Source of the DNA: a virus
Reading direction: 5' to 3' (one strand)
DNA length: 64,000 nt
IMG/VR virus record: IMGVR_UViG_3300045988_084189
Location: 25,423-89,422 of that record
The notes beneath the pieces are model-generated. The model was not told the DNA's origin. It saw only the letters and a list, made by a program, of their open reading frames with translations, and searched no databases. The translations under genes and the position numbers were made by a program. This document shows, one piece after another, positions 23,370-30,089 of the stretch; position 1 is the first letter of the stretch, and each line of letters starts with the position of its first letter.

Positions 23370-23398
23370 AGTATAGCACCATAGCGGCGATTTGTCAA
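23370..23398 (-). promoter_or_regulatory. sigma-70/sigma-A type promoter (TTGACA-N17-TATACT)
   Basis: Reverse complement reads TTGACA (23398-23393), 17 bp, then TATACT (23375-23370). Confidence 0.7.
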
Positions 23399-23459
23399 GC
23401 CCTATTTTATAAAAATCCCTACAATCTTTCGACCATAGGGATTTTACCAGGAGGATTAT

Positions 23460-23735
23460 TTACTCATTGATTTCTGCCTTGAGTGTGCTTGTAGGCTTAA
23501 ATGTCAGAGCATACTTGGCAGGAACTTCAATGGTTTCGCCTGTCTGTGGATTACGAGCAGTACGAGCATCACGCAGCTTGGTTGTGAACTTGCCAAAGCC
23601 ATGAATCACTACATCTTCATGCTGGACTAGGCTGTTCTTTACATAGTTGATAAATTCATCAACAATTTCCTCAGTATCCTTGATTGTGTTGTCTGTTGAC
23701 TGAGCTACAAACTTGATTAGTTCCTTCTTGGTCAT
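23460..23735 (-). CDS. hup: HU/IHF-family DNA-binding protein
   Basis: GFGKF...RTARNPQTGE...FKP arm motif, 91 aa. Confidence 0.9.
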   Translation of the reverse strand: MTKKELIKFVAQSTDNTIKDTEEIVDEFINYVKNSLVQHEDVVIHGFGKFTTKLRDARTARNPQTGETIEVPAKYALTFKPTSTLKAEINE

Positions 23736-24179
23736 AAATTCCTTTTAATTTCCTTTCAATTTCTAATAAAATTTTATTAAAACAAGTCGCAATGTTCATG
23801 CGCATATTGACTTGATATATAGGGTTATTGTTCCACTATCAACTACTTACAGGGTCCTCTTACCCAAGCCCTATATTGTTTTGCGCGGAATAGACTATCA
23901 CCACGCTATGAGCCTGTGTCGAATATCGCTCTTTGTCCAGTTTTCTGTCAGCTGGCAAACACCTCATCTAATGCGCACTTAATGAGGATTTAAGGCGTTA
24001 CTTCATAGCATCAGGTGGTCAACCATCAACTATTCAGCAACTAGCATTACAACCTATAAACTAGACTATCCGCAGTGACCAAATCTTGAGGACGGCCTTA
24101 CAAAGCTAGGATTTTCAGCTTTTCCTCCAGACGTCTATCAAGTGTGCTTACAATGCTAGTAGAGGCATGATAGACGTTT

Positions 24180-24252
24180 TGACCGTGGTAGGATTCGAAC
24201 CTACATCTCAACCGCTATGGACGGAGAGTATTACCAATTAGGAGACGCGGTC
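24180..24252 (-). other. degenerate tRNA-like element (canonical T arm and acceptor stem, no proper D or anticodon stems)
   Basis: Reverse complement: GACCGCG...GTAGG-TTCGAAT-CCTAC-CACGGTC-A. The acceptor pairs 6 of 7. The D region cannot pair. The anticodon-like stem is only CCG/CGG around the loop TCCATAG. No CCA is encoded. Confidence 0.3.
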
Positions 24253-24867
24253 ATATGGTAGTAGGCTTTAGGCTCAACCTACAGGAACCGCCATTGATTT
24301 GTTTTTATCGACCCTAGGCATCGATTGGCTAGTAATCCAAACAATGGTCAACAAACCATAACTACTGGTTATGATAGCAAGCGAGGCCGCGCGTGACCTC
24401 ATCTTATATAAATTCCTCAATTACCATCGACAGGTGTAATTATGTCCTCAATATACGTTTTTGAGTAATGTCTACTCTCATTGAGTACCTTATATAAAAT
24501 TGCGCTACTTGCTATCATATGGAAATGGGCTTTAAGCATCAACCCATTAGAAGCAAATCAATAAACCTACACTCTAACCTAGTCCTAAGACTGCTAGAAC
24601 CTCACCCTGTTTTTGTATGCCTCGCCTCAGCTTATTGATTACAACTTTAATTAGTAGCCCTTAGTTGCCACGGGGTCAATCTCTGCTTAATCCGTCTGGT
24701 TCTCGTTATCGACATGATTGACTGCATATGCCTTTATGCTGTTAAGCAATTTAACTTCCTCTCACCAGCTCGATTTGCATTTGATAATGGAGTGCTTATG
24801 ACACATTCTCATCTCCATAATAGTAGTCTATAAACCAGCCACTATATATCATTTCAAGTGGACTTAA

Positions 24868-24944
24868 TGGTAGCTCAGGTGGAATTCGAATCCACACTTT
24901 ACGGATTTTGAATCCGCTCCCTCTGCCGATTGGGGTACTGAGCC
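24868..24944 (-). tRNA. tRNA with anticodon CAA and a short (5 nt) variable loop; CCA encoded
   Basis: Reverse complement parses as GGCTCAG-TA-CCCC-AATCGGCAG-AGGG-A-GCGGA-TTCAAAA-TCCGT-AAAGT-GTGGA-TTCGAAT-TCCAC-CTGAGCT-A-CCA. Confidence 0.8.
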
Positions 24945-25778
24945 ATATTCAATCTCAAGCCGACTTCCTGCCTCATAGCTATTTCTAGCATCGGCTCGTG
25001 AATGATGTTTACATAATATCCTTATATCACCTTCGTCGTTACGTTTTTGCATGGATGCTAACGTGGCACGATTGGGCGCGACCCCAATTCTCTAGTCTGT
25101 ATCTGCCGCTTCTCAAACTCTGCGCAGACCCCAGTGCGGGCGTGATATAGATTTGACGGTTATCTTCAAATCCGGTCGGATATTATATTATTTGTCAATC
25201 CCAATCCCTTTTATTATGCCGAACAGATTGACTAGTGCGCCCTACTTGGCATTAGGCAATTACGCCATTTATGCTTATCTCATTTGTCTTACGCACGTTC
25301 CCTTGCTCGCTTTTTTATCAAAGACCGACATACCACGTAGGATATGCGGTTAGCTTGGTTTGCCTATCGCACGAGCAATGATAGGTTTTTTACGACAATA
25401 TGGTAGCTATGACCCGGTTTCATGGTCAATTACGAAGAGCAGTTAAAAGTTGTTACCTTTTACTTAAAATCTCTCTTCAACCTCTTACGAGGGACTAAGC
25501 CGTATCATTCGGATTTCCCGACTCATTTCGACTTGCGGATTTGTTACCTACCGCTGCACTACCTGCTAACCTTTCTATGTTAGCCCCGACCCGTCTGTTC
25601 AACTATCGTTAGCTATTGCCGAAGTGTTATTGCACTCTACTCCATATGGAAGACCTATTTGATCGTTCGAGTGCAACATATGATGGCTGTTCATCAAACT
25701 CCACTTAGCTGTTTCGTAATGCCCATCTGAACTATGTCAGGACTCAGCGATTTCAGCACCATCATCTTTACATTCTCA

Positions 25779-25807
25779 ATTATACCACACTTGATTTTAT
25801 TTGTCAA
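25779..25807 (-). promoter_or_regulatory. sigma-70/sigma-A type promoter with TG-extended -10, driving the ORF-free region
   Basis: Reverse complement reads TTGACA (25807-25802), 17 bp ending in TGG, then TATAAT (25784-25779). Confidence 0.75.
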
Positions 25808-25882
25808 GCATTATTTTTCATACACTAATAATCAATAAATTTTCTTAAACATCTAACCATACAACTTACCCTACCTAATCAA

Positions 25883-26122
25883 CTAATCTGAAATTTCTTC
25901 ATTATTAGTCAATGATTTCTTTGCCATACGAGCTGATTTGAGCCGTTCTGCCGTAACTTGCTTCTGCTCTTCGGTCATTGAGCGGGTACGCCCTGATTTG
26001 CCAAATCTCAAGTCATAAAGCGGACAAGACTTAATTGGACAATGTTTCACTTCGTTTGCTGAATCACCTGAGCATTGTAAACAATATTGTCGTATTCGTT
26101 TCAGCGGAGATGCTGAATCCAT
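25883..26122 (-). CDS. small Cys-rich (zinc-binding) protein
   Basis: CLQCSG...HCPIKSCPLY in a 79 aa ORF with an AAGGAG RBS. Confidence 0.6.
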   Translation of the reverse strand: MDSASPLKRIRQYCLQCSGDSANEVKHCPIKSCPLYDLRFGKSGRTRSMTEEQKQVTAERLKSARMAKKSLTNNEEISD

Positions 26123-26151
26123 ATTAGGTACTCCTTTTATTTTATTTTATC

Positions 26152-26227
26152 TGGTCGAGGGTAAGTGATTTGAACACTTGTAGCACGATTATAAGTCGTG
26201 TGGACTAGACCGCTGTCCGAACCCTCG
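26152..26227 (-). tRNA. tRNA-Ile (anticodon UAU)
   Basis: Reverse complement parses as CGAGGGT-TC-GGAC-AGCGGTCTA-GTCC-A-CACGA-CTTATAA-TCGTG-CTAC-AAGTG-TTCAAAT-CACTT-ACCCTCG-A-CCA. All stems are Watson-Crick. Confidence 0.85.
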
Positions 26228-26326
26228 ATAATTTGAGCCTTTTATCGTCATGCTCAGGACTATATTCTAGGAGGTTCACAATGAAGAACTGTAATTGAGA
26301 TTACCCAATTTCTCAACCACATCTGT

Positions 26327-26355
26327 ATTATACCATAAGATTCGCTGTTTGTCAA
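26327..26355 (-). promoter_or_regulatory. sigma-70/sigma-A type promoter (TTGACA-N17-TATAAT, TG-extended)
   Basis: Reverse complement reads TTGACA (26355-26350), 17 bp, then TATAAT (26332-26327). It lies upstream of tRNA-Ile. Confidence 0.75.
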
Positions 26356-26364
26356 GCATTATTT

Positions 26365-28803: not shown

Positions 28804-28956
28804 TTCATTTTGTGGCTCGTATATATGTATATCACATTTGATTCTATTTGTCAAGTATGAATTTCAATTTTCATTTTGGGATTATAAATATCAATTCCGA
28901 TTTTAGAATTTCATTTTCCACATATATTTACAATCTCGAAAGTCATTTTTCATTTT
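28804..28956. repeat. four dispersed copies of TTCATTTT(CCA)
   Basis: Copies at 28804-11, 28870-77, 28910-17 and 28949-56. The last two extend to TTCATTTTCCA. Confidence 0.6.
28826..28854 (-). promoter_or_regulatory. sigma-70/sigma-A type promoter (TTGACA-N17-TATACA)
   Basis: Reverse complement reads TTGACA (28854-28849), 17 bp, then TATACA (28831-28826). Confidence 0.6.
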
Positions 28957-29339
28957 CCAGCTCGTGCATATATAGATATCTATATACGTACACATATACA
29001 ATAACAATAATCATTATCATTTACACATACATATATCAATCAATCGATATATTAGCACATCCATCTACATATACATTTACATATTCATATGCAGATACAT
29101 CTACATCATCATGCACATAAATGATGCAGATAGCAATACGCATGATATAGATAGATATATTTATCGATAATGCGCAGCTTTATGTCTATGAATAAAAGCA
29201 TTACTTTCATGCACATATCACGATTTATATTAGCATCAAAGTCAACATCATTCACATTTTTCATATGAATATTCACCAACAGCATCACATTTTTACATGG
29301 GAGATTTATGTACATTCACACATTTTTCCATTGTAAAAT

Positions 29340-29880
29340 AATGTGCGGTTGTCGGCTGGCAACTTGTCTGTATGACATAAGACGCACAAGTTATGAGCGC
29401 AGATTTCACCATAGCCATGTCGCGCCGTTGGAACCGATTTGAGCCGAGTTTATACTCATCCTAGGTAATATATGCCCATAGTCGATTCGAGCCGCCACGC
29501 CTGTCCTGAGCCACGCATCGTCGCCGCGATTGTATATAGGCATATATTACCGGGGGAAAATTCGTTTGACCTAATCCGCACACGCGCACATGAGAAAATC
29601 CGGCTCGATTTTTCCGCGCCGATCCATTATATGTACTGTATATTGCTGGGAAAAATGTAAAAAATTGTAAGGTGCGCTCGTACTTATGCCCGCTCGACCC
29701 CTCGATTTTTCACTTCATTTGAGTAAAGCATGGTGGGAAAATATGGTAGTTAAAGTCGTCTAACAAGATTTGTGAAAAAATGGAAATAGCCTGAAAAGTT
29801 GGAAGTTGTGCAGATTGTACAAACATAGTTAAACGCCTTTAACTCATGTTCGACCTTCCCCTCCTCATATGTTATCCATA
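29340..29880 (-). ncRNA. candidate promoter-driven non-coding transcript
   Basis: The consensus promoter at 29891-29919 points into ~0.5 kb that lacks any RBS-preceded ORF. The only AUGs behind the SD-like GAGGAGGGGAAGG give 2- and 8-codon mini-ORFs. Confidence 0.3.
29464..29551. repeat. perfect 13-bp inverted repeat around a GC-rich 62-nt spacer
   Basis: GGTAATATATGCC (29464-76) pairs with GGCATATATTACC (29539-51). Confidence 0.8.
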
Positions 29881-29890
29881 GGTCACTTTG

Positions 29891-29919
29891 ATTATAGCAG
29901 ATTGATCGCAGCTTGTCAA
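29891..29919 (-). promoter_or_regulatory. sigma-70/sigma-A type promoter (TTGACA-N17-TATAAT)
   Basis: Reverse complement reads TTGACA (29919-29914), 17 bp, then TATAAT (29896-29891). Confidence 0.7.
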
Positions 29920-30033
29920 CAAAAAAATTGCATAAAAATAAGCCGCCAATTTTGGGCATATTGTACAATGCCCTTCTGGCGGCTTTGGCGGCTTTATACG
30001 GCGCGAACTATGCCGGGGATATATAAACATAGG

Positions 30034-30070
30034 GAAGAAAAGAAAAGCCCATAGCGGTCAAGCTATAGGC
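30034..30070 (-). terminator. intrinsic terminator ending the small-ORF island operon
   Basis: On the minus strand: GCCTATAGC-TTGACC-GCTATGGGC (8 of 9 bp) followed by TTTTCTTTTCTTC. Confidence 0.65.
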
Positions 30071-30089
30071 TTTAGAATTGCTATTTGAT

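Follow-up and report, generated by a model that had tools for sequence, protein, structure and literature searches.

What does a phage encode in about 2 kb that hold no credible open reading frame (ORF)? The virus record IMGVR_UViG_3300045988_084189 of IMG/VR raises this question at a locus between the gene for an HU protein and a gene for a small Zn-finger-like protein, p79, for which an earlier note, made from the letters alone, had proposed a giant structured RNA with an embedded tRNA. We revisited the locus within a stretch of 64,000 nucleotides (positions 25,423 to 89,422 of the record), which we refer to as the window; the region in question spans window positions 23736-25882, from the HU gene to p79, and its RNA sense is the minus strand. 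Our analysis indicates that the region is probably an array of accessory structured RNAs, punctuated by tRNAs and transcribed as one unit.

A cassette mosaic between p79 and HU

The comparison that carries this reading rests on about 25 phage contigs of IMG/VR (47-101 kb), which were retrieved by means of p79 and conserved DNA words, and which we refer to as the relatives. One of them (L001) is 98% identical to the window over the whole region and has the same stops. In the other relatives the flanking genes are 68-92% identical, but between p79 and HU one finds differing subsets and orders of sharply bounded segments, and the array is a mosaic of about 13 such cassettes. From three relatives (L022, L024 and L026) the array is altogether absent, p79 being followed by the HU leader within 90 nt; the promoter segment, which accompanies the array in several relatives, is missing from them. 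Because there are relatives without some or all of the cassettes, these can be considered accessory, and they are exchanged between phages. On the best explanation, a family of ~70-100 kb phages with gut Clostridia-type hosts carries a hypervariable array of non-coding cassettes here. Modules G, E, C2 and H are each closed by a terminal helix of their own, and no conserved long-range pairing between modules was found. The features of the locus are given below in the direction of transcription, with identities as medians relative to the window.

25883-26122 (-): p79, gene for a 79-amino-acid Zn-finger-like protein
25807..25779 (-): array promoter, TTGACA-N17-TATAAT with extended -10 TG, 12/12 matches
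25680-25778 (-): module H, the first transcribed domain (11 distinct sequences)
25622-25679 (-): module G2, 8-bp hairpin UUGCACUC/GAGUGCAA at 25630-37/25669-76 (minimum free energy, MFE, z-score -3.7)
25387-25625 (-): module G, the full RAGATH-33 RNA, ~239 nt, 12 helices (270.5 bits with our own covariance model R1)
25304-25390 (-): module G1, 87 nt
25192-25303 (-): module F, ~110 nt of almost invariant sequence (14 distinct sequences; identity 90%)
25014-25191 (-): module E, ~175 nt, 7 helices, 8-bp terminal stem 25185-25178/25021-25014 (alignment A7, 16 distinct sequences; identity 91%)
24945-25015 (-): leader D (module D), structured 5' leader of the first tRNA slot (identity 95%)
24868-24944 (-): tRNA-Leu(CAA), 77 nt, without long variable arm (ARAGORN; Rfam tRNA model 56.6 bits)
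24520-24867 (-): module C1, ~350 nt, shared with L040 and L067, with the leader hairpin motif repeated at its end (24515-24537)
24370-24519 (-): module C2, 150 nt, perfect 12-bp closing stem 24370-81/24508-19, in the window and L001 only
24253-24369 (-): module B leader, 117 nt, conserved and structured, before the second tRNA slot (identity 97%)
24180-24252 (-): degenerate tRNA-like element (Rfam tRNA model 25.2 bits, gathering score 29)
23886-24179 (-): module A, ~290 nt, multi-hairpin
23820-23885 (-): module A2, small element closed by UAUAGGG/CCCUAUA (identity 96%)
23736-23819 (-): HU leader, 84 nt, the most conserved segment of the locus (identity 98.8%)
23460-23735 (-): HU gene (PHROG phrog_379 DNA-binding protein, E=2.5e-29)

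The non-coding character of the region, which the earlier note had pointed out, stands: across 23736-25882 the longest stop-to-stop frame on either strand comprises 85 codons, each frame holds 35-38 stops on the plus strand and 59-62 on the minus strand, and there is no conserved open frame of gene length, whether standard or recoded. Two ORFs that the note had listed and discounted (24864-25052 and 25153-25353) span cassette junctions that vary among the relatives and thus cannot be conserved genes. A gene hidden by stop-codon reassignment was considered and rejected, since freeing any single stop opens at most 146 codons. The region forms part of 23395-26364, the largest gap in the window without a 100-codon ORF. 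The perfect promoter said to fire into the region on the gene strand is present as described, TG included, and from it we infer a transcription start near 25772. The impression that the region is less AT-rich than its flanks holds on one side only: its G+C content of 0.42-0.45 exceeds the 0.31-0.38 of the 26-28 kb flank, but is about equal to the 0.43-0.46 of the 22.6-23.4 kb flank.

A search against all of Rfam, as the note had advised (Rfam 15, 23600-26300, both strands, E<=10), returned only RAGATH-33, an orphan family known from comparative genomics, together with tRNA and two spurious weak matches. At this threshold there was no match to GOLLD, ROOL, OLE, raiA, group I/II introns, ribozymes, RNase P, 6S or Y-RNA-like families, so that membership in the GOLLD/ROOL class falls away; the ROOL model works as a control, scoring 302 bits on another phage contig (L013). 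No transfer-messenger RNA was found by ARAGORN. A blastn search in 'distant' mode with the whole region against 50,697 deposited phage records recovered the tRNA only, the modules thus being present in no cultured phage. By portal protein, the nearest cultured relatives are ~100-kb phages of Enterocloster bolteae, at 47% identity, and the p79 protein gave no useful phage match. Scans with short patterns (19 bases of module A, 18 bases of module F) produced chance matches, which were discarded: L032, L035, L039, L043-L045 (which resemble repetitive coding sequence) and L075-L077.

RAGATH-33 beyond its Rfam model

The RAGATH-33 match (RF03102; 25501-25613 (-), E=7.5e-31) reaches 139.9 bits, where the gathering score is 120.4, and covers model positions 1-113/113, and RF03102 is matched in all RAGATH-33 relatives that were retrieved. 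We found no mention of RAGATH-33 by name in the literature searched. By its score and its three hairpins the RNA belongs to this family, but whereas the Rfam model describes 113 nt with three hairpins and long conserved stretches treated as unpaired, the conserved unit measures ~240-265 nt and contains 12 helices. A conserved block of ~230 nt (25391-25621) was detected by nhmmer in 20/20 viral loci, which had been found via a RAGATH-33 word, and the extra ~125 nt pair with stretches that are unpaired in the Rfam model. The helices are P1-P10, with P2a/b and P5b, where P1 (10 bp) joins the 5' and 3' ends and P4 is a long-range pairing; P1, P4, P5, P5b and P7-P10 are additions to the Rfam model, the hairpins of which (P2, P3 and P6) are kept, with 99.8-100% of alignment cells paired and double-sided changes in P3 and P6.

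Compensatory change supports the extended fold. In a MAFFT alignment of 18 distinct sequences (A8), 94.4% of the cells are paired and 28/57 pairs show double-sided change, compared to 16.9+-2.0 in shuffled alignments (0/500 reach the observed number) and at most 10 in slid controls. The covariance model R1, built from A8, finds 88 copies, only one of them in the window. In a model-based alignment of 67 distinct sequences (A10), 96.3% of the cells are paired and 45/63 pairs are double-changed, compared to 30.5+-2.1 in shuffles (0/500), with 542 double-changed cells against 139 in shuffles and at most 18 pairs in slid controls; these numbers should be discounted to some degree, as A10 was fitted to the model and thus leans towards the structure and inflates them somewhat, although the MAFFT alignment A8 agrees in direction. 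U.G pairs are invariant in P2b (67/67) and in P4 (64/64). Read from the opposite strand they would turn into A.C mismatches, and the fold is therefore that of a minus-strand RNA, on the same strand as the tRNAs. The internal loop between P5b and P6 (25497-25534) is nearly invariant and asymmetric, with GAAAUGAG opposite AAUGAUA, and could contain tandem sheared G.A pairs; a kink-turn at this position was rejected by eye, its sequence being off the canonical pattern.

RAGATH-33 is found mostly on contigs of 110-218 kb, several of them labelled human gut, and on two contigs of gut metagenome-assembled genomes. Metagenomes scanned with a pattern drawn from the 5' domain alone gave 67 loci, 66 of them real, and the 3' domain is present in all 66 except two that are cut by contig ends. 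A scan of a genome collection (596 billion bases) with an 18-base RAGATH-33 pattern gave two real loci, L049 and L054, the remaining 16/18 matches being due to chance, about as calculated. For 85 full-length copies, the tRNAs called in the same locus all share the strand of the RNA, and none is on the opposite one; in 34/85 an upstream tRNA ends 0-1 nt before the RNA starts, and in 26/85 the RNA ends 4-7 nt ahead of the next tRNA. Six loci (L004, L005, L008, L009, L015 and L017) hold the extended RNA behind a promoter of its own and with a U-run after P1. In L008 it sits between two promoters matching at 11/12 positions, one ending 12 nt upstream of it and the other starting 45 nt downstream. 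In the larger phages RAGATH-33 appears either as a self-contained gene from promoter to U-tract or as an exact spacer between two tRNAs. At the locus between p79 and HU, module G was confined to the window, L001 and one short metagenome contig of the same type. The window copy shares ~93% identity with the copies in the large phages, yet it resides in a different, smaller phage family, which points to horizontal acquisition.

The tRNA arrays of the larger carriers also hold ROOL (L013:4468-5062, 302 bits), RAGATH-18 (L015:1595-1667) and DUF3800-XI (L012:305-354). The downstream promoter in L008 fires into ~540 nt without a tRNA or Rfam match (L008:3585-4154), and further RNAs are probably present in these arrays.

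Judged by eye, several elements of RAGATH-33 resemble parts of a tRNA. P4 is acceptor-like; P5 is D-arm-like, with a 4-bp stem and a GG-containing loop, two nucleotides after P4; and P10 is T-arm-like, with a 5-bp stem, a 7-nt loop UGAAACN and U/A at the positions of tRNA U54/A58. Moreover, two loops of the RNA are identical, with the sequence GGUAAC(A/G)A. None of this is picked up by the Rfam tRNA model. One could speculate that the cassettes constitute a moron-like mobile non-coding toolkit in which RAGATH-33 would serve as a tRNA-directed machine or decoy, mimicking tRNA or gripping tRNA elbows and diverting host enzymes that process tRNAs or, in defence, cleave them, although we regard this proposal as improbable.

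tRNA slots and the other modules

The one canonical tRNA and one tRNA-like module that had been noticed in the region are both there. The former, tRNA-Leu(CAA), lacks the typical long arm, and its slot in the relatives is occupied by short or by 84-85-nt, class-II-like tRNAs, so that its charging identity is uncertain. Leader D, whose stem is the helix 24958-63/24991-96, is followed in the relatives by tRNA-Leu(CAA) of 77 nt or 84-85 nt, Leu(TAA), Val(TAC) or Ile(TAT). The second element, at 24180-24252, is not a canonical tRNA, as it falls below the Rfam threshold and is not called by ARAGORN. In the Rfam alignment it has an intact T arm and, except for one C.A mismatch, has kept its acceptor stem; the D arm and the anticodon arm carry mismatches and are aberrant, with a loop UCCAUAG that has C at position 33. 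The rest of the region gave no match to the tRNA model at E<=10.

The slot behind leader B holds tRNAs in the relatives, called as Ile(TAT), Thr(TGT) and Met(CAT) by ARAGORN. Two of these homologues, L029:6817-6890 (TAT, Ile) and L040:6179-6252 (TGT, Thr), are one anticodon base apart; the anticodon has apparently switched between these closely related phages. The hairpin motif at the end of leader B, ...GGUUGAGCCUAAAGCC...CCAUAUG, recurs inside C1 as a direct repeat (D1, 24251-73 / 24515-37). Reading this motif as a promoter (TTGATG-17-TATGAT, 9/12) was rejected because the -10 hexamer would overlap the 5' end of the tRNA. C2 occupies the place where the motif in C1 predicts a tRNA, and the slot of A2 is occupied by a real tRNA in L029. 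Upstream of p79, behind its own perfect promoter (26355..26327), lies a further tRNA-Ile(TAT) at 26152-26227, which is 76 nt long in the window and 90-95 nt, according to ARAGORN, in most relatives; the additional length may represent an insertion or an intron.

Among the other modules, E is a statistically supported RNA, and new relative to Rfam. Its alignment has 98.3% of cells paired and 10 double-changed pairs; shuffles gave 2.0+-1.2 (0/500), and slid controls did not exceed 3. F, A and H are candidates with structural hints only; like E, they have no Rfam match (Rfam 15, E<=10). In F, the central hairpin is built from three unrelated stems of different lengths among the relatives. In A, long invariant stretches alternate with at least five hairpins whose stems are swapped among relatives, and there is an optional stem-closed insertion of ~90 nt; RNAalifold on MAFFT alignments missed these variable hairpins because of insertions and deletions. 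H has a conserved closing stem (GAUGAUGG/CCAUCAU) and 3' half, with an inner segment that is wholly different in three groups of relatives. G1 occurs in L070 and L071 without G or G2, upstream of F. G2 was seen only alongside RAGATH-33, in the window, L001 and the short metagenome contig of the same type. The five perfect helices picked out in the earlier note all exist, each within a helix that is conserved in relatives: apart from the hairpin of G2 and the stem of leader D, they are helix 6 of E (25071-76/25083-88), the 5' hairpin of A (24131-40/24168-77), whose stem is swapped in relatives, and another hairpin of A with variable stem sequence (23962-67/23982-87).

In the array-less relatives a small ORF, MKVVVGNRGSGVTT..., runs through the HU leader (L026:6320-6480), and the leader may therefore be a coding remnant or an overlap.

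A proposed processed transcript and its alternatives

Starting from the anatomy, strand, promoter consensus and cassette turnover of the locus and from the RNA structures of G and E, the following sequence of events can be envisaged. One long minus-strand transcript would run from ~25772 through about 13 independently folding modules into the HU mRNA and end at a hairpin that we recognised by eye after HU (~23405-23445). Its modules are of three kinds: tRNA cassettes, in which a structured leader precedes a tRNA slot; structured RNAs that stand alone (H, G1, F, E, C and A); and the putatively acquired copy of RAGATH-33. One slot is occupied by tRNA-Leu(CAA), and three others (after the B leader, after the C1 motif and beside the HU leader) by a degenerate tRNA or a non-tRNA element. 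Host tRNA-maturation enzymes may then cut the precursor at its tRNA or tRNA-like marks, RNase P at the 5' ends of tRNAs and RNase Z or exonucleases at the 3' ends, which would free the stem-closed RNAs as stable, trans-acting molecules. As the cassettes can be dispensed with, move between phages and keep to the vicinity of tRNAs, we favour a trans-acting accessory role, and our working guess is that during infection these putative RNAs act either on the RNA or tRNA metabolism of the host or on defences that target tRNAs.

Several observations weigh against a co-transcribed array of this kind. Co-transcription, transcript ends and processing are deduced from the promoter, the strand and the adjacency of tRNAs. 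A terminator scan found no intrinsic terminator within the array or before HU, and the terminator-like hairpin after HU is a by-eye reading, which the scan missed because its loop exceeds 8 nt. The high identity of the modules possibly reflects recent horizontal spread and not selection. RNAalifold reports 0 compensatory pairs for F, H offers only its invariant closing stem, A, F and H altogether show little formal covariation, and C1, C2, G1 and G2 are represented by too few independent sequences to judge. Finally, folding energies are unremarkable: MFE z-scores range from -0.3 to -3.7 across the region, with the minus strand always lower than the plus strand, and one coding control reached -2.3; since a coding control scored equally well, we dropped them as evidence for being too weak.

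Among the alternatives, one could think of the array as a long cis-regulatory 5' untranslated region that governs HU, for instance via processing or structure-dependent control of translation. The array does lie between a strong promoter and HU with no terminator found in between, HU is the only protein gene downstream of it before the terminator-like hairpin, and the HU leader is the most conserved segment of all. However, relatives keep HU and the same leader with no array or with other subsets of it, the extended RAGATH-33 also occurs far from any HU gene, in tRNA arrays or as its own unit, and the tRNAs of the array will be excised regardless, all of which makes this explanation unlikely.

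It is also quite unlikely that the region is a decayed tRNA array, consisting of dead tRNA genes and neutral spacer around one live tRNA. While one slot does hold a sub-threshold tRNA-like element, C2 and A2 are non-tRNA sequence at slots where relatives hold or predict tRNAs, and phages can evidently live without the array, conservation in the spacers exceeds that of the adjacent protein genes (median identities of 83% for HU and 75% for p79). Moreover, G and E show strong compensatory change, stems are replaced with their hairpins kept, the extended RAGATH-33 persists in 85 or more loci across many metagenomes, some with their own promoter, and apart from the sub-threshold element the rest gave no match to the tRNA model at E<=10. 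The earlier note had left the choice between a known class, a new class and a decayed tRNA array; elements of each are present, as an orphan RAGATH-33, as classes absent from Rfam and as a degenerate tRNA, and this hedge fits the region better than the giant RNA of the note's heading, but decay is limited to slots.

A third possibility is that the locus acts at the level of DNA, as a replication origin, a recombination hotspot or an array of protein-binding sites, or that recoding or errors in the sequence mask a protein gene in it. A tyrosine integrase is encoded next to HU, and the shuffling of cassettes implies frequent recombination at their junctions, but the invariant G.U pairs are strand-specific and point to RNA, no repeat arrays or iterons were found in the region, and a gene is opposed by at least 35 stops per frame, which no reassignment opens and which L001 shares at 98% identity; we consider this possibility very improbable. 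That a single ornate RNA of ~2 kb, of GOLLD/ROOL type or of a new class, fills this one promoter-driven, ORF-free unit is hardly tenable, even if ROOL does share a tRNA array with RAGATH-33 in L013, given that no GOLLD, ROOL, OLE or raiA match was obtained at E<=10, that G, E, C2 and H are self-closed and no conserved long-range pairing between modules was found, and that the cassette mosaic contradicts it, the pieces being sharply bounded, combined and ordered differently from relative to relative, and altogether absent from some.

The preferred reading, a tRNA-punctuated array of structured RNAs, has precedents, structured RNAs that ride in phage tRNA clusters being already known. In phage T4, host tRNA-processing enzymes cut RNAC and RNAD, stable small RNAs of its tRNA gene cluster, out of precursors that contain tRNAs. 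We propose an arrangement of this kind here, with RNAs that are contiguous with the tRNAs, on the same strand and behind a shared promoter, although the array is far more modular and variable, and host and phage family differ; the search of the phage collection with the region returned no match of this type, RNAC and RNAD not having been compared individually. These T4 products are small RNAs from the phage tRNA region whose biological roles are not established (PMC3014915). GOLLD and ROOL are structured RNAs of phages and prophages that lie beside tRNA genes, with which they are probably co-transcribed, and their function is not established either (PMC5737381); they form oligomeric cages (PMC12286853). 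They share the tRNA-adjacent phage setting, but the units of the array measure 60-350 nt against their 580-800 nt, and neither sequence nor structure matches. Phage tRNA arrays have been associated with codon supply or with escape from tRNA-targeting defences (PMC10264068, PMC11464382, PMC11555353). With these the locus has in common the clustering on one strand, the turnover of tRNAs at fixed slots and single-base changes of anticodons; unlike them, it holds one confident tRNA in 2 kb, most of the length being non-tRNA structured RNA. For IMG/VR, 8,495 candidate RNAs have been described (PMC10690425).

What is new, then, is the full architecture of RAGATH-33 and its niche, together with an organisation in swappable cassettes in the leader of HU. 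The RAGATH-33 entry needs revision, since the Rfam model covers about half of a larger fold with a fixed genomic niche, and this alters which RNA should be synthesised for biochemistry or cryo-EM. The locus also offers a natural system, with one promoter, swappable tRNA slots and stem-closed cassettes, in which array-less relatives serve as natural controls. It makes testable what the non-tRNA RNAs in phage tRNA clusters do, a question that dates from RNAC and RNAD of T4 and extends to GOLLD and ROOL. We regard the finding as a refinement and a source of candidates, which establishes no new principle.

Two other places in the window deserve mention. A second ORF-poor stretch of ~1.2 kb (28907-30089) contains no ORF of at least 100 codons and gave no credible Rfam match; it has a TA-rich core near 29000-29120 (G+C 0.27) and is 74-90% identical in relatives, and it could be an origin or a further non-coding RNA. 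The plus strand carries two adjacent orphan Rfam motifs at 48666-48862, namely DUF3800-VIII, which scores 50.3 bits, and drum, which at 44.8 bits barely passes the threshold of 43.

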